A stretch of DNA of 55,191 nt, filler included, from Basidioascus undulatus (Eukaryota): the NCBI GenBank assembly GCA_000826855.1. It is 3 parts of 3 records of this genome, joined end to end, with 100 filler letters (N's around TTAATTAATTAA, not from the genome) between each part and the next. Parts side by side here need not be neighbours in the genome. Positions count along the whole stretch, not along the records: positions 1 to 18,315 come from JTLS01000469.1; 2 more parts are not named here. One strand, 5' to 3'. The stretch's first letter is position 1, and every line of letters begins with the position of its first letter. Below, piece by piece: positions 5,415 to 36,854 of this stretch. The notes under the pieces are model-generated. The model saw only the letters and a list, made by a program, of their open reading frames with translations, made no database searches and had not been told where the DNA came from. The position numbers and the translations under genes were made by a program.

Positions 5415-5437
5415 CCGTTCCTAACCGGCAGACACCG
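5415..5437 (+). promoter_or_regulatory. Putative Aro80-type site CCG-N7-CCG-N7-CCG (candidate autoregulatory)
   Basis: CCGTTCCTAACCGGCAGACACCG about 300 bp upstream of the regulator ATG, with CCG at 5415, 5425 and 5435. Confidence 0.6.
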
Positions 5438-5735
5438 CGCCTGGTGATTCTTTCTGTCTCCCCCCCTGCACCCCTCGTCGTCGACTCACCCTGGGCGCTT
5501 TCACTGCGGCTCACGCCGATTGATATTTTCACAGTAATTCCCGTACTTTTTAGGCTATCCGGAGGACCGACGCCGGCGACTGAGCGGACGCGCTTACCCA
5601 CACCGCGCGGCAGAGGAGACGGTCCTCGACTCTGTGCGTCCCTTCAATAACCGCTCAGCCGGTCCCAGCCGCCATGGCGTGGCGCCGCGCTCACATCATA
5701 CGCGTTGGTTATACAAATGCAGTCGATTCTTGAAC

Positions 5736-8700
5736 ATGGACGCGCACGCGCACGACGCGGGTCCGGGCTCAGCGGACAAGCGATGGCCGGCCGAGCCGCA
5801 CAACCCCCAGGACTACTGCCAGCAACAGCAGGCACCACCACTCGTGCCTGGCTTTGGGGTGGGCGCGCAGCAGATAAGCGCCGGTGATGGGGGCTCGTAT
5901 AATGTCCTGGGAACTGGCGTTACTTCGCGTGAGTGTGCTTCGCATTCGTCTTGGGAAGGCCTTGGGGAAGGCGGTGGGAGACTGGGCAGCATGGACCTCA
6001 CACGCTCAACCACTTCCCTACGCTCATTCCATCGCAGCGTCTGAATCCTCGTCTACACCAGCACCCTCTACCGCCTCCGCCTCCCAGTCCGCGCAGCCCG
6101 GGCGCCCACACGTCCCCCAGCGGCGCGCGTTCAAAGCGTGCCTGAACTGCAGGCAGCGCAAAGCGCGCTGCGACCTGGGGGACATCGACTCTCCCGGCGA
6201 CCCGCCCTGCGCGCGCTGCCGCCGCGAGGGGCGCGAGTGCGTCTTCGCTGCGAGCAGGCGCGGCGGGCGAGGTCCGCTGGCGGGCAAGAAAGGTGCTGGG
6301 GAGAATGGGGGGGGAGGCGGAGTCAAGGAGGAGGGTTCTGGTTCGGGTGCGAGCGGGCGGAGGCTTTCAGACGGGACGCCGCTTCCACCCAGTATCTTCG
6401 ATTCGAGATACGACCGCCCGAAGCTCCCGCCCATCCACTCCCTCTCCTCCGGCTTCCCTGGCGCCGCTGCTGGCTCCCCCTCCGCGTCCCACTCCATCTT
6501 CCGCGTCGGGCCCAACGCACCTTCCCCCGCCCCCTCGTCCTCTCACCCTCACCCATCAGTGCCCGGCGCGCCTTCGCCCTCCTCTCTCCCCTCCTCTCTC
6601 CCCTCCTTTTTCTCCTCCTTCGCCGCGCCTGCATCCAAGCGCCCCGACACGGCCGCGTCATCCCCACACGACGGCACAGCGACCACCACCACGACGTCGT
6701 CCACGTCCCCCACCGCGCGCTCCATGTCCGGCTCGACCTCCCCCCCGCCGTATAAACGCAGGCGGACCCTGCCCGGCGCGCAGGCGCCCGTGGACCCAGA
6801 GAGACTCGCCGCCGCAAGCCTCCGCAACCCCGCCGACGCGCTCAACATCCTCGCGCTCGCGTCTGCCGCTGCGGAGCAGCACGCGCGCGGGTCGGACGAG
6901 GCGGAGGGGAGCCTCTCAGGCGAGGAGGCGGACGAGGCCGAGGACGCGCCCGTCGTGGACGGAGGCGGGGGTTCGAAGCGCCCGCGGTCCGACGGCGCAC
7001 TTACTCCGCAAGAAGACGGCGTCTCCCCCTCACATCACCATCATCACCACCACCACTCGTCCGCGCCCCCAAGCCTCGCGTCCTTCGAGCTTATCAAGCG
7101 CGGCGTCCTTACGCCCGCGCAGCTCGCCTCCGCCGTGGAGGCATTCTTCAAGCGCCACCACTTCGTCTTCCCCATCATCCCCGCGCACCGCATCCCCAAG
7201 AACGAGGCGGACCTGGCACGCTTCGCGCGCGACGAGCCACACCTCCTCACGGCTTTTGTCGTCATTGCCTCGAGGCATGATCGGAACTCGGAGGTGCACG
7301 ATAAGAGCTGGGCGTACATGCAGGTGCATCTTTTCGCCCCGGGCTGTCATGAGCGGCGCACAAGGCTCACTGATCTTCACTGGCTTTCCGGCGCTTGATC
7401 ATAGACGCTCATCAACGACCTCATGTTCGGGAAGGCGCCCTCGGTCGGCGCGGTCGAGGCGCTGCTGCTGCTGTCCGGTACGTGAACAAGGCGCCTTCTC
7501 TTCGTCTCTCAGGGCGAGCGCTTACGTTGATCCCCCTTTGCTCGCACTTCGCTCTCCCGCGCTATCGCAGAAAACATTCCACGCCAGCGCGACACCACTG
7601 AAGCCAACACGCACGCCGAGGAGAACCGGATGGCGTGGATGCTAGTGGGGAATGTAAGTGATGTGCTGCCCTCATTTCGCCGTTCCTGCTACCATGCAGT
7701 ACTGATTCGGGTCTTGGTGAACAGGCTGTTCGCATTGGGTGAGAAGGTAGTGCATGGTATCGACGCCGGATACTGACGTCGCCGCCATTGCCCCAGGTAC
7801 TTCCTCGGCCTCGACCAGAAGACCCTGCTTCCTACGCAGCCTCCGCCCGAAGACCCGGAGGACCGCAGCAATGAGGCGCTCGATCGAGAGCGGCTGGCCT
7901 GGACTTGTGCGTAGCCGCCTTGTGAAACGTTGGCGGAGGAACGATTCTGACTCGCGCGTAGCGACGCAGATTGCTACCTCTTCGACCGACAGTGAGTCTG
8001 GTTTTGCGGCAGAGCAGGGATGCATCCAGGGATGGATCAGCAGTCGGCTGATCTGCTAGCGGCGGCGGTGCACGATAGGATCTCCATTCGCGTCGGTGCG
8101 TGTTTGCTGTCCTACTTCTTCCTGCACGGCGCGGCTGACGCTCGATACTTGCAGGCAAGGCTTTCTGGAGCCGCGGGCCGGGGCTGTGCTTTCAAACGAG
8201 CAGCGCAGGCGGGAGCTACCCCTCTGCGGCGGACAACTTCCCCTCGCTTCGACTGATCCCAGGATCGCAGGACGACTTTTCGTCGCTCGTACAAGCGTGA
8301 GTGTTCGCCGCCCGCATGATGCTGCTTCTGAAGAGCTCGGTTACTGATGCTGCCAACCTGGCAGGTACGTCGAGCTCACGCAGACTATGACGTCCGCGCA
8401 CGACATCCTGTACCCGAGCAAGGACCGCACGATCGCGCTCGTCAAGATCGGGGAGTACTACAAGGTTGGTCGAGGAGGCTTGGAGAACGCGGTGCGGCAC
8501 TGACATGTTTGGTCGGTGCAGTACTTGGACGAGTTCACGCGGGCCATCGTGCGTTCTGTTTCATCAAAACACTCGGATCGGATGCTCACGATCTTGCTTC
8601 AGAACGGGTTCAAGATCGCCTGGGAGGGCAAGCGCTGGGCGACGTTCCCCCTTACCGAGCTCGTCTGGGTGCGCAGTTCTTGTCATGCTACCGCTAGATC

Positions 8701-10051
8701 GCTGGGCTGATCTTGGATCACACAGATCACGTACCACTACCTGCGACTCTACATATTCGGCTTCTCTTTCCAGGCGCACGTGCAGCGCCAGACGTCCAGC
8801 CCGACTGGGCGTCTGGGGCTCGCCGCAGACCAGGAGCGCACAGTCAACGTCGATACGGTCGTCTTCCCGCGGGGACCGATTGCCAGTGCGTTGCTCCCCC
8901 TCTCGCATTCGGGAGGTGCTTCTGCTGATCACGATTGCGGTGGTGTCTTGCAGGCCCGGATGCGAAGTTCATTCTGGAGGTGTGTATGACTTGTCGTCTA
9001 AGGTCGAGTGAGGCGTTGCTCATACCTGTGCCCCGTGCCCGCAAAGGCCATTGATGCTGCAGTAAGCCTGATTTATATATTCATTGCGCGCACGGTCTCT
9101 GACGCCGGCCTGTGTTACAGAGCGATCTGCTTCGTATCTGCACCGACCGCCTCCATCCCGGCGGCGCCCTTCCCTACCTCCCTTGGCGTTTCTACCTCTA
9201 CTTCTCCTATGCTGGTGTCTTTCTTCTCAAGGTGCGCTTGCTTCGACATAGCCTCTGCGAAGCCACGTTCTGACGTATGAGAGGTTCGACAGGCCGTCTT
9301 TGTTGGCGCCGTTGTCCCGCAAGACCAGCGCGCCATCCTCAAGCTCGTCAAGCGTCTCATCCTGTGCCTCGCCTGCGCAAGCACCGACGAGCAGCACCCA
9401 GGCGTGCGACACGCGCGGCTCCTCAACGGCCTCCTCCGCACGCTTAGCCGCGGCTCGGACCACTTCGTCAGCGCCGCGCCGACCGGCAACGTCACGCCCG
9501 TGCGTCGCTCATCACCTGAGCGCGACGTCGAGCCCCGGACCGCGGTGGAGGCCCTAGCCGCGCCCCCGAATTGGCCTGCGATAAATGGCCGCGAGACGAA
9601 CGGCACCGCACTGAGCAGAAGCCCGCGTCCAGCCGCGGCAGGACCTGCGAAGTCCGCCAACGGGAACGCTCGGCCTGACGGGTCAAGCATCGACGCCACG
9701 CTCGCGGCGCTCCAGCTGCCGTCCACCTCCGCCTTCGTGCCTCAGAACCCCGCGTTCCCGCTCGTGCCGTTCACCGAGACGCAGCCATTCCACCTGATCG
9801 CCTCGGCGCTGGACAAGCAGAGCCCCGCGGATCTGAGCGACTTCCAGTTCGACTTCGACCTCAACCTGCCGCACGCGCCCGATGCCTTCTCGCAGTTCCT
9901 CTCGGACGAGCACGCGCTCGACAGCGACTTCTGGCGCGCGTTCTCAGCGCAGAGCGACGCGGCCTTCTTGCACGGCGAGGGCGCCGGCGCGAATGCCCCC
10001 GCACATGCGCGCCCAAATGGCGGTGCTCCGGGGCTGGGTGCTGCTGGATAG
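5736..10051 (+). CDS. ARO80: Zn(II)2Cys6 transcription factor, Aro80-like, multi-exon
   Basis: ACLNCRQRKARCDLGDIDSPGDPPCARCRREGRECVF matches the Aro80-type cluster with its extended CDLG...DPPC loop. Also has an LRNPADALNILA motif, a His8 tract and fungal TF middle-region exons (EENRMAWMLVG, GFKIAWEGKRW). ATG 5736, first intron 5929-6037, stop TAG 10049-10051. Confidence 0.88.
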
Positions 10052-10285
10052 AGTTTGCACGGAGTGTGTTGAAGATGGTGTATGGGATCCGTGTTGTTTT
10101 GGTTTGTTGTACTCCCTGCAGTGTACTTTTCAATCTTTCATCTTGAGGTGGCACGATGGTTGGCTCGTTTTGAAGAAAGGTATTGGCTGTCTCGCTTACC
10201 GCGAGTTTTCGCGAGGGAAGGGACTGCTGCCTGCGGGAGGTCTTCGGCAGCCGTAGACTGCTGTTGTACGACACTACGCAAATCA

Positions 10286-10308
10286 CCGTTGCTAACCGGA
10301 GACAACCA
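10286..10308 (+). promoter_or_regulatory. Putative Aro80-type site CCG-N7-CCG-N7-CCA upstream of the permease
   Basis: CCGTTGCTAACCGGAGACAACCA. The first 14 nt match the 5415 site at 13 positions. About 400 bp upstream of ATG 10702. Confidence 0.6.
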
Positions 10309-10701
10309 CATTCAGAATGCAGAGTCGTCTCCATGCATATTCACGTGGCCGCTGTAAGGTCCAAGCCCATGGTAACGAGGCAACAGCATGGCCATGTGAA
10401 CAGCCCATGTGAACAGCTGAAGTCACGGTTGTCTGCCCGGCGATTCGGAGCGGAGACCGCCAGTAGCTCGAATGCATATCTTGAATTCTTCGCACACTCG
10501 GGCGCGCACCACTGCCGGACAGTCGCTTGTGATTCTAGCGAAACTGACTTCGGTCCCCCATCATAAAAGAGAAAGTTGGCCTGCGCAGCACGTTCACCCC
10601 CGATCCGTTTCGACTCACACTCAAGTCCCACCGCGGTCCAAATCACCTCCGGAGCCCCTTGCGTCCTTCCGAGCAACCTCACTCACAGCCGTCGCACCGG
10701 C

Positions 10702-13700
10702 ATGCTTTCAGACATTTCAACCTACGATGAAGTTGAAAAGAAGGCCGACGTCCAGCACATCGAGATGCAGAAATCCGACTCCCGGCCTGAGGCAGCGCCC
10801 CAGCATGGCAAGCCGCGGGCTGGCGACGAGGCCCTCGACATCCTTGCGACCGCAGGCGAACACGTCGAAGTAACTCATGAAGAGAACAAGCTAGTACTTA
10901 ACAAGTCAGTCACTCATATGCTAAAAACCATGGTATAGTGCTGAACGGATGCCTCCGCCAGGATCGACTGGCACTTGATGCCATTGGTGAGTCTTGAGGC
11001 TTCTATTACCGAAAATCTGGCACACAGGATTGGAGCTGACCTGCCCTTCAACTCACCAACAGTTGGTTGTGATATACTTTCTTCAATATCTGTGCGTACC
11101 CTTCCAGAGCGCTAGAATCAGAGCTCACCACTCATTCGCGTGCGCAGGGACAAGCAAACCCTTGCATTCTCGTACGCTTCTTTTGGGGTTATGCGGCCTT
11201 TCGTTAGAAATATTACTTGCATTCACGCACCGTGCTCCATAAGCTCTGTGTTCGGGATTCAGGAAGATGCGAACCTTGTGGGAAACCAATATTCCTGGCT
11301 CGGTTCCAGTGCGTGAAGACTTTCTGATGCGACGGTTTTTTCAAAATCTCATAATTGCCGTTTCCCCGCAGTCCTGTACCTCGCCCAGATGATTTGGCAG
11401 CCCTTCTCCTCCTACTTTTTGGTTAGGTTCAGGCTCTCAGCCTTCCTCGGAACCATCATCGTTTCTTGGGGTACATGCTTGGTGAGGTTCCTCCTCTCGT
11501 CCCGCAGACACTCGCTGATACACGGCTGTTTACCTCGTCGCAGGCTTGCATGGCTACTGCGCACAATTTCGCGGGGCTCATGGCCGCCCGATTTGTTTTG
11601 GGTGCTCTTGAGGCATCTGTTGCCCCAGCGTTCGTGCTCGTGGGGCAGGTCAGTTACCTCTCTCATCTCAGCGAAGATTGGCCGGCAGCCTGACTGACTG
11701 CACCATGCATGCAACGCATCGTCTTTTACAGATCTTCTATCGACGCAGTGAGCAGCCGTGGCGCGTAGCCATCTGGTATTCCCAAAACGGTTTCGTGAGT
11801 GGCTTCAAATATTTTGCAGGCAGCGCCCGAGTTGGGATACTCATTTCCGCGTCATCATGCTCAGTGCAATATCCTGGGCTCCTTGCTTGCGTATGGGTTG
11901 GGCCACATCCACAGTGATGCCCTTCACTCTTACCAGGCAAGCATGTCGCCTTTTAGAGCATAAGCCCGCCGTATCACACAGACTCACAAAATGACAACCC
12001 TTTTTCAGATTATTTTCCTCTTTACCGGTTTGGTGACCGTCGCGGTGGGCGTAGCCACATACTTCCTTATGCCGGACAACCCGGTCGCTGCAAAGTTCCT
12101 CAGCCAAGAAGAGAAGGTGATCGCGGTCGAGCGTCTTCGGGCCAACCAGCAGGGTGTCGAGACGAGTACGCTAGAGCACGCCGGACAGTGTAGTGGTTGT
12201 TCACCATCAATTGACAACTAGTCCGGCACAGAGACGTTCAAATGGACGCAGGTTTGGGAAATGCTCCTTGACCCAAAGTCGTGGGGCTGGTTTGGTCTTG
12301 GCCTTCTCATCTCGTGAGTTCTCAGGATGCCATGTTGACACCCACCTGGCGGACTCTGAGACTCAGGTTGGCGCTCAAATCCACAGCATTCCCTCGGGTG
12401 GAATCGCAGGTACGCTTGACAACAGCCCCGGCTTCATGGACCACGACGCGAGATTCCTGACTGTTGAATGTATGAAGGCTTTGGTCCTTTGATACTACAG
12501 TCCTTCGGGTTTGATAACTACGAGACAATGCTCTTGAATGCGAGTGCACAGCCCATTTCACAGCACGTCGACTTTGTGCCTGCGGCTGATGGAACCTCTC
12601 GGCGCAGTGCCCTTTCGGCGCGATGCAGATTCTCGTCATCTTTGGTGGCGCATGGCTCCAGACCAGGTTCCGGAACCGCAGTCTCATCATCCTGTGCGTG
12701 TTTTTTGTGATACAAGAGGCGTCAGAAGTCTGACGAGGAGGTGCAATAAAAGCGGCTGTATGCTGCCGTCAATTGCAGGCGCTGCTGTCCTCCGTACCTT
12801 GGGACGTGGGGCTGAGTACAAAGCACCTCTGCTTGTTGCGTTCTGTGCGGTTTATCTCTTCAGATTCTCTTATCCCTTCTAACTTTTGCTCCCTTGCAGA
12901 CATTAACAGTTTCTACATTGGCGTCCAGCCGGCGCTGTACTCATGGCTTAGCAACAACGTCTCCGGTCACACAGTGAGTCTAAATTTTCAAGTGGAATCC
13001 TCATTCATGCTCAAGGCTCGATAGTATCTCTCACGAACGTCGGCCTGCCTTAGAAAAAGACCACAACGACCGCACTTCTCCAAGTAGGCATGGCAATCGG
13101 AAACATCGTTGTATGTGACTCTTTTTACGCTATTCAATTCGGTTCAAACTCACATATTTTTCACATTCTTTAGGGTCCTCAACTCTTCACTAAAGAAGAA
13201 AAACCATACTACCGGCGAGTCTACTCCAGACCGTGTGGCAGTCTCGTTCAACAGGCTGACCTGCGTTGACCATATGAAAGGCGCGGTCTTAACGCCGGTA
13301 TGTCGAGTCTCGATAATTTACCTGCACAGCGTACAATTAGTGAATAATAACCGTCCGCAGTCTTGGCAATCTACTGTGCGATCATGGCCTTGACATGGTA
13401 GGCAATCGGCACATTTTCCCAGCCGTTCCGCCTTTTTGACAAAAGATATCTTGGATTGGTTTTTTTATCACCCTCATTTCATATTCAGCCTGATCGCCGC
13501 CTACCTCAAGCTTTTAAACATCCGCAACGCTCGTCGACGCCTCGCAGCGGGCAAGGCTGAGATCCTGACGGACTACAGGTCTATTGATTGTGTTAAGAGG
13601 TGTTCTTTGACCCTGTTCTGATTAAACTATATAACAGTATGATGAACATGAAAGAGGCTGAGGCACACCGCGCCGCCATTCGCGCAGCCGCAGGAGGCGA

Positions 13701-13782
13701 GTCCAAGGAATTGGAGGTCGGCGACCATGCGTTCGACGACCTCACCGACTTGTGCAACGAAGAGTTCATTTACGTGTATTGA
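10702..13782 (+). CDS. MFS transporter, Dal5/allantoate permease (ACS) family, about 20 introns
   Basis: Spliced motifs KIDWHLMPL, LQYLDKQTL, NQYSWLGS, ARFVLGALEASVAPAF, FYRRSEQPWRVAIWYSQNG, MPDNPVAAKFLSQEEKVIAVERLRANQQG, NNVSGHTKK and C-terminal AFDDLTDLCNEEFIYVY*. Confidence 0.93.
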
Positions 13783-14410
13783 TAATTGAAGATTTTTTGT
13801 TTAGTCTGTATTCATGTATCAGTAGTGGTGGCTCTCATTCGGGTTTCTTTTGCGACTTCTGGTGACTGGTGAGCAGCGTTCATTTATACGGACTTTGCTG
13901 TAACTGCTGTTCTCTGGACTAGGTCTAGGTGAGTTGAATACATCTGTATATTGTAGCAAGCTTACGATGTGCACAAGTTGGAGCAGTATGGCAAGATCTT
14001 CCACTAAGTTCAACGACCGCGCTTTCTTGGCAGCATCAGAAACGCAGCGCCATGCATTGGTTTCGCCTAGTCTCGAACTTGACAAAAAAAAAACTTACTA
14101 TTTCAACTTATGCGCAGAACTGTCACCCTTTGCCTACACAGACATTTCTACATGTACATGGAAGCAGTGAGGAACGAACACGTTCGACTTCGCCTGCTGT
14201 CAGGTTGAAGTTTCCTACTCGGCTTCAAACGACCAAAATTCGTTACTGTCCTTTTTGGTGCCTTCAGTGCTGATAGAGCCACACTCTGCGGTTACAAGTT
14301 GATTGGCCCTGTCGATAGCGGTCACTGGCACTTCAGATCGGCGCAGTCATAATCCGTCACTTTCACTCGGTGATCTCTACACCAAGTCTCTTTCATCGTC
14401 AGCTCCTCCC

Positions 14411-15728
14411 TTAAAGCGAGCTCTCGTAAGCCATCGCCCTCTTCAAGCCCTTCTCCAGCATCTCCTTGACGTCTTCGCCGGCCACGGGCAAAGGCTTCCT
14501 CGGCACTCCGCCCGCGCCCTCGCCAACCCAGCGATCCATCGCCCACTTCGTACCACCAATCCCCGCCTTGACCACCGTCCAGTCGGCCTCCGCAACGAGG
14601 TCCTGCAGTGCGAGCGCCTCGGGCATGTGCGATGGGTCGGACAAGGCAAGGAGGGACGTCTGGTAGAGCTTGACGATCGTCTTCGGGATCAAGTTGCCTA
14701 CGCGCACGATTGAAAGGAATTGAGCAGAAGCACATTGTAGTATCTTGGGAGAGAACGGACCGGTACCCGTGATGCAACCGGTCGCGCGTGCGACGAGCGC
14801 GGGAAGGAGGTAGTCGCTGTATCCGGGGAGGACGTGGAACGGCAGTGGGTGACGAATGATGTACGCCTCGGATTGCGTGTGTGCAGAGAGGCGGTGTCCC
14901 TACCATGTGGGCGCTTCAACAGTCAGTATAGCTGGGGCGCACAGGTGGCAGGGATGGGCGTACCTTGCCAATGCCAGCGCAGGTAAGCTGAGGAACAAGA
15001 GACGGATCAGTCATGGCTAGTTGATCATTAAGAGTACCAGGGGCATACCTTTGCGCCAAAGCAGTTCTGGTGCTCGGACAGCTCGATAAGCTGGTCGGAG
15101 TCCAGGTCGATGCCGCTAGCCGCGCCTGAAAACGTTGCATCTCTCAGCCTTCAACTTGAATAATATGTTGAAAGTTCGAAGCTGGAACTCACCGGGGAAG
15201 TTGTAAATCATCACATTCAGGGGGCTCTTGTCAAGAACCTCCTTGAAAAAGTCCATCACTGCCTGACGGTTCTTGGCGAGTCCGAATGCGAAGTAACCTG
15301 GGTGGATGACGATCGAGTAGTCCGCCCCAGCGTCCTTGGCCTCCTGCGTAAGCCGGATCGTCTCCTTCGCGCTTCCCGTGCCCGTGCCAACGAGGAGAGG
15401 AACGCGAGTGAAGCCGGCGGTGTCGAGAGCCGAGCGCGCGGAGCGAACAAGGGCGGCACGCTCGGCGTCGGAGAGGTGGGACGCTGGGAAGGAGAGGTAG
15501 CTGAATGAGCGACGACATATCCAGCTGGCTGAGGGCGAACCGGAACTTACCCTCCCCGTTCGTCCCAAGCAGTACGATCCCCATTCCCGCCTTCGCGAGG
15601 CGCACAACCTGCGCCTCGAACGCGGGGAAGTTGATGTCCTCGCTCCCAGCATGGAACGGAGTGATCAGTGGGCAGTAGACGCCTGGCAGGAACGGGCGGC
15701 GGGTCGTTGACTCGGCGTGGGGTGACAT
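14411..15728 (-). CDS. DHDPS-family (class I) aldolase, resembling L-threo-3-deoxyhexulosonate or 4-hydroxy-2-oxoglutarate aldolases
   Basis: GVYCPLITPF, LLGTNGEASHLS, MIYNFPGAASGIDLDSD, Schiff-base Lys in GAK|LTC, GYSDYLLPAL and GCITGTGNLIPK. Five GT-AG introns give an intact frame. Confidence 0.9.
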
Positions 15729-15883
15729 TGCTTGTTGAGTTGCTTATTGTGGGAGGGAGAGGTAAGAGGATGGTCGTGGTCGGAACGATGGCGGGAAGCG
15801 AACGGCGGCCTTTAACAGCAGAGGCCGGTAAGGGACTCAGCGAGTTCACGGCGGTGGAAGGCCGGCCCGGAGGTCGCGCCTAT

Positions 15884-15897
15884 CCGGCTACACACGG
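15884..15897 (-). promoter_or_regulatory. Putative Aro80-type site CCG-N7-CCG upstream of the aldolase
   Basis: Minus strand reads CCGTGTGTAGCCGG, fitting CCGTnnnTARCCGG, about 155 bp upstream of ATG 15728. Confidence 0.5.
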
Positions 15898-16747: not shown

Positions 16748-18024
16748 CTAAGCATACACATGCACCCTCTCCTCACCCTCCCCCCAGTGCACTACCCGGC
16801 TCTCCACACTCCCCACTCGCTCGAGCTCCACAATCGTCCCATCCACACAAAGGACCTTCGCATCTTCATCATCCTCCTCCTGCCCGCCCACCGACACATC
16901 AGCCTTAGCCTTCCACCCCCAACACAGCAAGAAGACGTACCGGCGTCCACCTGAACCCCTCCGCGCGGATCCACTCCACCTCGCCCTCGCCCTCTTCCCC
17001 CTCCTGGAGGACCAAATCCACGTGCTTCCCTCCCGCGTACATCGCCCGACTAATCTCTACCAAGCACGCCGCGACCTTCTCCCTTTCGCCCACGTCCATC
17101 CCCGCGCGCCCCGGGCGGTACGCCAGGATGTTCATCCTCCCCTCGGGCGGGCGCTCGGGCGCGACAACGAAGTGCGGCTCGAGGCGGTCCACGTGGGTGG
17201 CGAGGAAGTAGGCGAATGGGCCGTGCAGCGTGCGGGAGTGGAGGGGCACCCACCCTTTCTGGGGACGGTAGATCTCGGGAGGGGAGGAAGAAGAGGAGGA
17301 GGAGAGGATGTCGACCCTCGCCCGTGGGGAACGCCCCGCGATCTGCGCGAAGCCGAGCTTGAAGCGCTCGATGCCTGGGTGGGTGGGGCGGAGCGCCTCA
17401 GACGCGCGGAGGAGGAGCGCGTGGGTGGACATCGAGGTGACGATGTGCGCGAGATGGGGTGGCCCGTTGGCAGAGCGGACGAGGGAGAGCGGGAGGGGGC
17501 GCAGGGAGTGGGAGGACGGGGAGAGGAATGAGGTCAGGCTGAGGAGGTGTGAGATTGGCGAGGTTGCGGGCGGGTCGGAGGACGGCTGCGGCGGATGTAG
17601 GGAGGAGTAGAGTGCGTTTGCGGTGCCCAGCGGGATAGGGATCAGGTTGATCTGCGGTGCGTGGGCGGGGGAGGAGCCCGTGAGGTGCGGGAGGTAGAGC
17701 CCCGAGAGAAGCTCATGCGTCGTCCCGTCTCCTGCATCCCCAGGTCAGCCTTCCCACTCTTCCACTCTCCCGGAGGACCAACGCACCTCCTACAACAATC
17801 ACGTCCGCCTCCCCTCCATCCAGCACATCCCCCAGCTCCCGCCCCACCCGCACACCGTCCCCCGGCGCGGACGTCTCCCACACGCGCACGGAGCGCTCGG
17901 CCAGGAGAGAGAGGACGTGCTCGTCTGTGAAGGCGCGGGCGGTGCGGTGCCCGGCGGCGGGGTTGAGGACGAGGTGCACCTGGGAAGAGCGGTAAGATAT
18001 CGGCTGGGACTGTTTCTGTGACAT
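16748..18024 (-). CDS. Diacylglycerol kinase catalytic-domain (sphingosine kinase-like) protein; start uncertain
   Basis: VHLVLNPAAG, WETSAPGDG, IVVGG|DGTTHELL, PIPLGTANALYSS, STHALLLRASEALR and LCVDG. Confidence 0.8.
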
Positions 18025-18315
18025 GCTTTAGCAGCGGATGGGTGTGAGGGAACAGGCAAGAGGGGCTATCAAATGACGAAATGGGCGGGGCAAAGGGAAT
18101 TGTTTGGCATTCGGCACTGTTTGGTTTAGTTTCAGGCACTTCGACGCGTGCACTCAATCTCCTCCCCTTCCTCCCCATCTCCGCCACTCCCCCAGCATTC
18201 ATCATGGCGCAAAGAGTGTGTCCCTCTCCCGCACCCTCATTCCCATATCTCATCCCCCTCCTAATCTCTCTCCCCCTCCCACCTCCGCACCGCTCCTCCA
18301 CCCCGCCTTCCACCC

Positions 18316-18415
18316 NNNNNNNNNNNNNNNNNNNNNNNNNNNNNNNNNNNNNNNNNNNNTTAATTAATTAANNNNNNNNNNNNNNNNNNNNNNNNNNNNN
18401 NNNNNNNNNNNNNNN
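18316..18415. other. Assembly gap with artificial linker (44 N + TTAATTAATTAA + 44 N)
   Basis: Exactly 100 bp. The palindromic linker has stops in all six frames and is identical to the second gap. Confidence 0.97.
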
Positions 18416-36754: not shown

Positions 36755-36854
36755 NNNNNNNNNNNNNNNNNNNNNNNNNNNNNNNNNNNNNNNNNNNNTT
36801 AATTAATTAANNNNNNNNNNNNNNNNNNNNNNNNNNNNNNNNNNNNNNNNNNNN
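36755..36854. other. Assembly gap with artificial linker (44 N + TTAATTAATTAA + 44 N)
   Basis: Same 100-bp structure as 18316-18415. Confidence 0.97.

Follow-up and report, generated by a model that had tools for sequence, protein, structure and literature searches.

A shared CCG-N7-CCG element ahead of a predicted Aro80-subfamily regulator, an ACS-type permease and a DHDPS-family aldolase in Basidioascus undulatus, and a candidate sugar-acid regulon around it

Three adjacent genes in a 55,191-nucleotide stretch of Basidioascus undulatus DNA (assembly GCA_000826855.1; hereafter the window, meaning the whole stretch analysed) each carry the same CCG-N7-CCG element upstream, and they encode an Aro80-subfamily Zn2Cys6 transcription factor (TF), an ACS-type permease and a DHDPS/NAL-family aldolase. 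We propose that this trio forms the core of a regulon for sugar acids or 2-keto acids, providing sensing by a self-activating TF, uptake and cleavage, and we assign this reading a probability of about one half. Taken separately, the element is very likely a true site of the adjacent TF, and autoregulation through the first site appears probable, somewhat less firmly. The window joins separate contigs through runs of N with a short linker (18316-18415 and 36755-36854), and the cluster lies entirely within the first contig (C2402), where its parts are arranged as follows:

5415..5437, plus strand: element in the TF promoter, CCG-N7-CCG-N7-CCG (core 5415-5428), 308-321 bp upstream of the TF ATG
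5736..10051, plus strand: Aro80-subfamily Zn2Cys6 TF, an open spliced model of 17 exons and 1059 aa, assigned from Pfam Zn_clus, homologues and a tree
10286..10299, plus strand: element in the permease promoter, 403-416 bp upstream of the permease ATG and 235 bp past the TF stop codon
10702..13782, plus strand: ACS-type (Dal5/allantoate-permease-like) MFS permease, an open spliced model of 22 exons and 552 aa
15728..14411, minus strand: DHDPS/NAL-family class I aldolase, an open spliced model of 6 exons and 331 aa, assigned from Pfam DHDPS, a PDB search and its clade
15884..15897, minus strand: element in the aldolase promoter, 156-169 bp upstream of the aldolase ATG

The three sites that an earlier reading of this DNA (the original prediction) had placed here are all present, each 156-416 bp ahead of an intact gene, and its impression that the window holds no further copy also held: the strict pattern CCGTNNNTARCCGG matched these three places only (shuffle mean 0.03; 0 of 100 shuffles gave three), as did the relaxed window pattern CCG-N4-TWR-CCG across the 55 kb. 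For three strict sites inside 10.5 kb the Poisson P is ~2e-8, a value to be read with the fact that the pattern was picked post hoc, after the sites had been seen. Bare CCG-N7-CCG repeats are at chance level in the window (54 vs 59.8 expected), which puts the information in the TAR/TWR ahead of the second CCG. At the first site a third CCG follows in register (5435-5437). Each member of the trio carries its site on its own sense strand, as had been claimed, but we rejected this orientation as a feature of the element, since in 6 of the 15 other site-gene pairs the site is antisense to its gene.

The zinc cluster of the regulator matched PF00172 on a window exon, and the fungal middle-homology region (PF04082) was found on an orthologue, P0056, that is ~50% identical to the window TF. 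Kinship with Aro80 is indicated indirectly by homologues named Aro80p/ARO80 and by a Cryptococcus pair best matching S. cerevisiae ARO80, which, with the Aro80-like spacing, bears out the earlier description of the zinc cluster as Aro80-type; CCG-N7-CCG direct repeats are found in the predicted target promoters, including the TF's own. The homologues were obtained by a HMMER search (a word-based search using one 84-aa exon of the TF gave none), and a search of the genome itself found a single gene of Aro80 type. The nearest relatives, at 50-57% identity, are from Jaapia, Tulasnella, Hymenochaetales, Physalacriaceae and Microbotryomycetes, followed by Lipomyces and then by two Tremellomycete paralogue groups in a quick tree with SH-aLRT support only. 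By its homologues the genome belongs with the basidiomycetes. In yeast, Aro80 is reported to bind CCG repeats with a 7-bp spacing, which occur at ARO9, ARO10 and the monocarboxylate permease gene ESBP6 as well as in the ARO80 promoter (PMC1829477). The window system resembles it in the CCG-N7 spacing, the site in the TF's own promoter and the carboxylate permease and aromatic-type aminotransferase among the targets, so that neither the own-promoter site nor a carboxylate-permease target is new. It is unlike yeast Aro80 in that lyases, together with a dehydratase, a lactonase and ACS permeases, make up most of the predicted targets, with no ARO10-type decarboxylase site seen, in that two of those targets lie in one cluster with the TF, and in its spacer consensus nnnS-TAR. 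The Aro80 relative HmgR of A. fumigatus is described as inducing its own clustered, non-Ehrlich tyrosine-degradation genes (PMC3203155), so the idea of a clustered Aro80 relative with non-Ehrlich targets has a precedent, albeit in a different pathway and with the HmgR binding site listed as not available (PMC12941744). By family sequence tests the window system appears to work like Aro80 and HmgR, with a predicted regulon that differs.

C. neoformans has two TF paralogues 53 accessions apart (AFR97129/AFR97076), which from a shared offset of 53 we infer to be CNAG_04398 ARO80 and CNAG_04345 ARO8001; for this pair the best S. cerevisiae match is ARO80 and the listed A. fumigatus best match is Afu1g14360 (PMC4391232). 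They belong to the same subfamily as the window TF, and the literature searched gave no target genes or motif for them. We take Afu1g14360 to be a gene other than hmgR, and CNAG_04346, an identifier that came without annotation, presumably encodes a DHDPS-family aldolase. In Cryptococcus and Kwoniella the two TF paralogues lie ~50-80 genes apart (P0237/P0266, P0060/P0278, P0248/P0123), which suggests an old local duplication with targets divided.

The window permease matched the permease of a metagenome locus, L029 (23.7% identity over 393 aa, E 8e-24), which places it in the ACS group of the MFS; the L029 protein itself matched MFS_1, with TIGR00893 as its best NCBIfam match, below cut-off. 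Single exons of the window permease gave no significant Pfam match, ESM Atlas returned generic MFS and epimerase leads only, and the label Dal5, based on sequence motifs, is our assumption. Three of its 21 modelled introns start with GC, not GT (11937, 12540, 13215), a share that seems high. The aldolase has an intact catalytic set, comprising GTNGE (residue 55), the tyrosine of IYNFP and the Schiff-base lysine of GAKLT. In a FastTree tree of approximate proteins every TF-linked aldolase groups into a single clade that excludes the genome's second DHDPS gene, and no curated NCBIfam model reaches its cut-off for this clade.

Linkage of TF and aldolase recurs in other fungi. Among nine annotated genomes holding both TF and aldolase (one of them too fragmented), the pair is linked in three: Tulasnella sp. 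418 (FRC02_010838/010840, tags two apart on a single 11,499-bp contig), N. friedmannii (QFC21_000418/000419, adjacent tags) and Mucidula (13 accessions apart within one 96,983-bp contig). When metagenomes were scanned with the aldolase alignment, 80 loci came back; in L029, L040, L045, L046 and L078 a TF of the same family is divergent from the aldolase, L045 and L046 being near-identical and L078 close to both. L029 adds an ACS permease, giving a permease-TF-aldolase trio in a gene order that differs from that of the window; L028, L034 and L039 have other neighbours beside the aldolase. In L046 (321-4108) a GH1 glycosidase gene and an ATP-grasp-like gene adjoin the TF, and a relaxed site at 2517 stands just ahead of the ATP-grasp-like frame.

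For the promoters of relatives we used a relaxed pattern set before those promoters were read. A relaxed CCG-N7-CCG site lies no more than 300 bp upstream of four of nine clade aldolases (L045, L078, L040 and L028; shuffle means 0.003-0.03), and two lie within 300 bp of the ATG of the L029 permease, whereas neither of two other DHDPS promoters (L025 and the genome's own paralogue) has one. Between L045 and L078 the site falls in one of the few conserved intergenic patches. Relatives mostly have TTG where the window genome has TAR, so the TAR...CCGG consensus is lineage-specific. In the Naganishia-like TF the zinc-cluster sequence is more divergent, for which reason the site may have changed in that lineage. 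In the 100-350 bp ahead of the aldolase, the Naganishia-like promoters of L032 and L035 are without the N7 repeat and share other conserved CG-rich patches.

Searches of the whole genome (32.1 Mb) suggest that the trio is the hub of a dispersed regulon with some 15 further genes, not a closed three-gene unit. Outside the window, 5 of 14 distinct strict sites sit 104-324 bp upstream of transaminase, permease, aldehyde dehydrogenase (ALDH) or alcohol dehydrogenase (ADH) genes:

L001: ARO8/ARO9-like (KAT-II-type) transaminase, strict site at -152
L003 and L015: ACS/Dal5-type permeases, strict site upstream of each
L005: succinic semialdehyde dehydrogenase (SSADH)-type ALDH, strict site upstream
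L008: Zn-ADH, strict site upstream

None of 15 control sites matching the reversed pattern lies upstream of a catabolic enzyme or ACS permease gene (one-sided Fisher p=0.017). Of the other nine strict sites, six fall within coding sequence, introns or the end of a gene, and three are intergenic with no gene seen. Position 7, which had been left free in the original consensus, is S (C or G) in 8/8 promoter sites vs 3/9 others, the remaining 6/9 having W (p=0.009). We left out one locus, L007, which is a copy of L015 (80 bp, at a contig end); contig ends in this assembly repeat short stretches from elsewhere (L007:1443-1522 and L015; L111 and L112), and motif counts are inflated as a result.

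The yield fell as the pattern was relaxed, from 5/8 (strict with S) to 7/44 (one end position relaxed) to 2 of the 30 systematically examined among 88 (both relaxed). Reading by eye in these relaxed sets covered loci with a Pfam or tblastn match, plus L162 and L163, so the member counts are lower bounds; it added the following:

One position relaxed: DgoD-like dehydratase with two relaxed sites, its only PDB match a putative D-galactonate dehydratase
One position relaxed: PanE-like (keto-acid) reductase
One position relaxed: CitE-like lyase
One position relaxed: extended SDR (L193)
One position relaxed: third Dal5-type permease
One position relaxed: class II aldolase, with a tandem triple site in its promoter
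One position relaxed: divergent FAH hydrolase/amidohydrolase pair (L233, C2742), with a tandem triple site
Two positions relaxed: SMP-30 lactonase
Two positions relaxed: D-2-hydroxyacid dehydrogenase

No relaxed site was found in the 7 kb around the paralogous DHDPS gene, nor at two other enolase-family loci and two thiamine pyrophosphate (TPP)-enzyme loci, with the L199 and L201 genes lying near contig ends. Those two TPP-enzyme loci are the 2-oxo-acid decarboxylase candidates, of which there are at least two loci, and one of them begins at a contig end. The TTR variant was set aside for the window genome, its count being background-like (37 vs 40 for the control); among 30 TTR loci fetched, all searched by tblastn and 150 of 172 open reading frames by Pfam, only a sugar porter (-274) and an ACS permease (~-464) stood out. 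We did not count as members L151 (intron), L186 and L229 (coding), L211 (ambiguous start), or L157 and L159 (distant or shared site); the last two hold a DOPA 4,5-dioxygenase-family gene (L157:1879-2760) and an HPPD-like gene (L159:1-820), each downstream of a relaxed site by ~370-680 bp. At L233:4190-6470 the FAH-family frame appears to continue into an alpha/beta-hydrolase domain, a possible fusion, and right after the site-bearing SDR at L193:3817-5114 there is a 7-bladed lactonase-like gene that seems to hold an in-frame stop and frame changes, which could reflect either a pseudogene or faulty assembly.

From sequence we reconstruct binding, induction and catalysis as follows. The Aro80-subfamily activator would recognise CCG direct repeats with a 7-bp spacer, which here take the form CCG-nnnS-TAR-CCG; an acid would enter via the ACS permeases, and the acid or its 2-keto intermediate would activate the TF, raising expression of the TF and of the regulon. 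Lactonase and the D-galactonate-type dehydratase would then yield a 2-keto-3-deoxy acid, which the DHDPS-type aldolase would cleave through a Schiff base to pyruvate and an aldehyde, leaving ALDH, ADH and 2-hydroxyacid dehydrogenases to dispose of the fragments. The most likely substrates are aldonic (sugar) acids, degraded by a non-phosphorylative De Ley-Doudoroff/Dahms-like route, and among the substrates first suggested a 2-keto-3-deoxy sugar acid does fit the wider regulon best. Non-phosphorylative aldonate routes (De Ley-Doudoroff, Dahms and Weimberg) use, like the predicted regulon, a lactonase, an enolase-family dehydratase, DHDPS- and FAH-family enzymes and ALDH (PMC9795676), and differ in being described mainly in bacteria and archaea; fungi are reported to cleave 2-keto-3-deoxy-D-galactonate (D-KDGal) to pyruvate and D-glyceraldehyde (PMC11219438), an activity whose gene was unassigned as of PMC6231085. 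We read the trio as sensor, uptake and cleavage for a sugar acid or 2-keto acid because the enzyme families of the predicted regulon match those of the aldonate routes and the fungal D-KDGal aldolase is without a gene; the window aldolase is a candidate for that enzyme (EC 4.1.2.51).

Several results weigh against this interpretation, and the first group of them bears on whether the wider regulon is real. The strict pattern occurs 18 times genome-wide vs 15 for the reversed pattern, so the total is not enriched, and the genome scan that had been suggested for a background rate gives, on count alone, just that background. The class 'catabolic enzyme or ACS permease' was broadened after matches had been seen, and when all 82 S-type sites examined are pooled the excess becomes weak (14/82 vs 0/15 control, p=0.08). 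The expected synteny, found in Tulasnella, Naganishia, Mucidula and the five metagenome loci, is broken in five of the nine annotated genomes (Cylindrobasidium, Meredithblackwellia, two Phenoliferia and Pseudohyphozyma), where TF and aldolase are on separate contigs or far apart, and the TFs of the five linked metagenome loci belong to the ARO8001-type paralogue group, not to the group nearest the window TF. Conservation of the motif is likewise partial: beside the four clade aldolases that have the relaxed site, five of nine are without it (TF-linked L029, L034 and three Naganishia-like loci), and the strict TAR...CCGG form is absent from loci L021-L046. Given the background-level genome count, the flexible target class and the p=0.08, it could be that the cluster sites are real and the wider regulon is mostly chance or belongs to another CCG-binding factor, many CGG/CCG-binding zinc clusters being known in fungi (PMC12941744), or even that the three sites are a post-hoc pattern. 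We hold this to be quite unlikely, given that the relaxed pattern yields exactly three sites in the window, that the S-bias lies at a position the original consensus left free, that tandem triple sites occur, that the site recurs in relatives under a pre-set pattern and that only one Aro80-type TF was found in the genome.

A second group of adverse results concerns the substrate. Human HOGA1 (E 3e-38) is the characterised structure closest to the aldolase clade, with YagE (6e-35) behind it, and the transaminase, the amidohydrolase, the CitE-like lyase and the SSADH, which is probably housekeeping and mitochondrial, misfit a pure sugar-acid route. HOGA1, the transaminase and the amidohydrolase bring in an alternative with the same TF and site, namely that the substrates are gamma-hydroxy amino acids or N-acyl or peptide forms: the amidohydrolase would free the amino acid, the ARO8/KAT-II-type transaminase would convert it to a 4-hydroxy-2-oxo acid, and the HOGA-like aldolase would split this to pyruvate and an aldehyde. 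In its favour are the triple site at the amidohydrolase, the strict site at the L001 transaminase, whose best PDB matches are KAT-II/AADAT and Aro8, and the G-x-N-G-E motif that HOGA1 has in common with the aldolase; Dal5-type permeases, moreover, carry ureido acids and dipeptides. However, two sites at the DgoD-like dehydratase and one at the SMP-30 lactonase would go unexplained, and no proline/hydroxyproline oxidase or pyrroline-5-carboxylate dehydrogenase was among the loci examined, although no search was aimed at them. We regard this alternative as unlikely.

Nor does a retained ancestral aromatic role recommend itself more, and we rate it slightly lower again. Here the same TF and site would serve (hetero)aromatic catabolism, with the FAH protein and an HpaI-like aldolase processing ring-fission products to pyruvate and succinic semialdehyde, the latter oxidised by SSADH. 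Both Aro80 and HmgR are responsive to aromatic amino acids, the FAH exon has its matches among HpaG/HpcE-type proteins, an SSADH is in the predicted regulon, the second NCBIfam matches are TIGR02313 HpaI (aldolase clade members) and HpaX (L029 permease), all below cut-off, and relaxed sites occur at the HPPD (~-680) and DOPA 4,5-dioxygenase (~-370) genes. Yet those two sites are distant or nearer another gene, the sole PDC/ALS-type locus with upstream sequence has no site, and no ring-cleaving oxygenase is clustered in any fetched locus. As to the earlier suggestion of an Aro80-type TF with non-Ehrlich targets, the wider regulon is mostly of that kind, but the ARO8/ARO9-like transaminase, a canonical Aro80-type target, has a strict site. 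The regulator-uptake-cleavage module survives in its gene families, its recurring linkage and the relaxed site in other fungi, but not as a self-contained set of three genes.

Returning to the sugar-acid reading, other fungal regulons for such pathways (GaaR/GaaC, R. toruloides RTO4_13270 and FUR1) likewise have a Zn2Cys6 activator over dehydratase and aldolase steps that give pyruvate and an aldehyde (PMC11219438; 10.1101/675652; PMC12370193). They are unlike the window system in their motifs (TCC-N-CCAAT, CCGACGG), FUR1 being XYR1-like (PMC12941744; PMC12370193), and the window aldolase clade stands apart from the genome's second DHDPS gene, either of the two being possibly the GaaC orthologue. 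Our searches found no description of this regulon or of targets of the subfamily, of which subscription journals and the supplements of expression or fitness studies may hold some. An extended version, which we consider doubtful, is that an Aro80 subfamily found patchily among basidiomycetes and early-branching yeasts was rewired from aromatic amino acids to a full non-phosphorylative sugar-acid pathway, with the linked DHDPS enzyme as the fungal D-KDGal (or broader D-KDG/pentonate) aldolase; if true, this would clearly exemplify the redirection of a conserved DNA-binding mode to a different metabolism and would also give Cryptococcus ARO80/ARO8001 a function. Few basidiomycete TFs have a defined site and regulon, and here a site, ~18 predicted targets and cross-species linkage are proposed, all derived from sequence. 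The prediction names a testable gene for the orphan fungal D-KDGal cleavage and suggests a role for the Cryptococcus ARO80 paralogues, and a non-phosphorylative sugar-acid route with its sensor would serve yeast engineering.

With no relaxed site near either of them, the genes flanking the cluster look housekeeping on weak Pfam matches, one being DAGK/sphingosine-kinase-like (~16750-18030, minus strand) and the other encoding ribosomal protein L3 (477-1220, plus strand).

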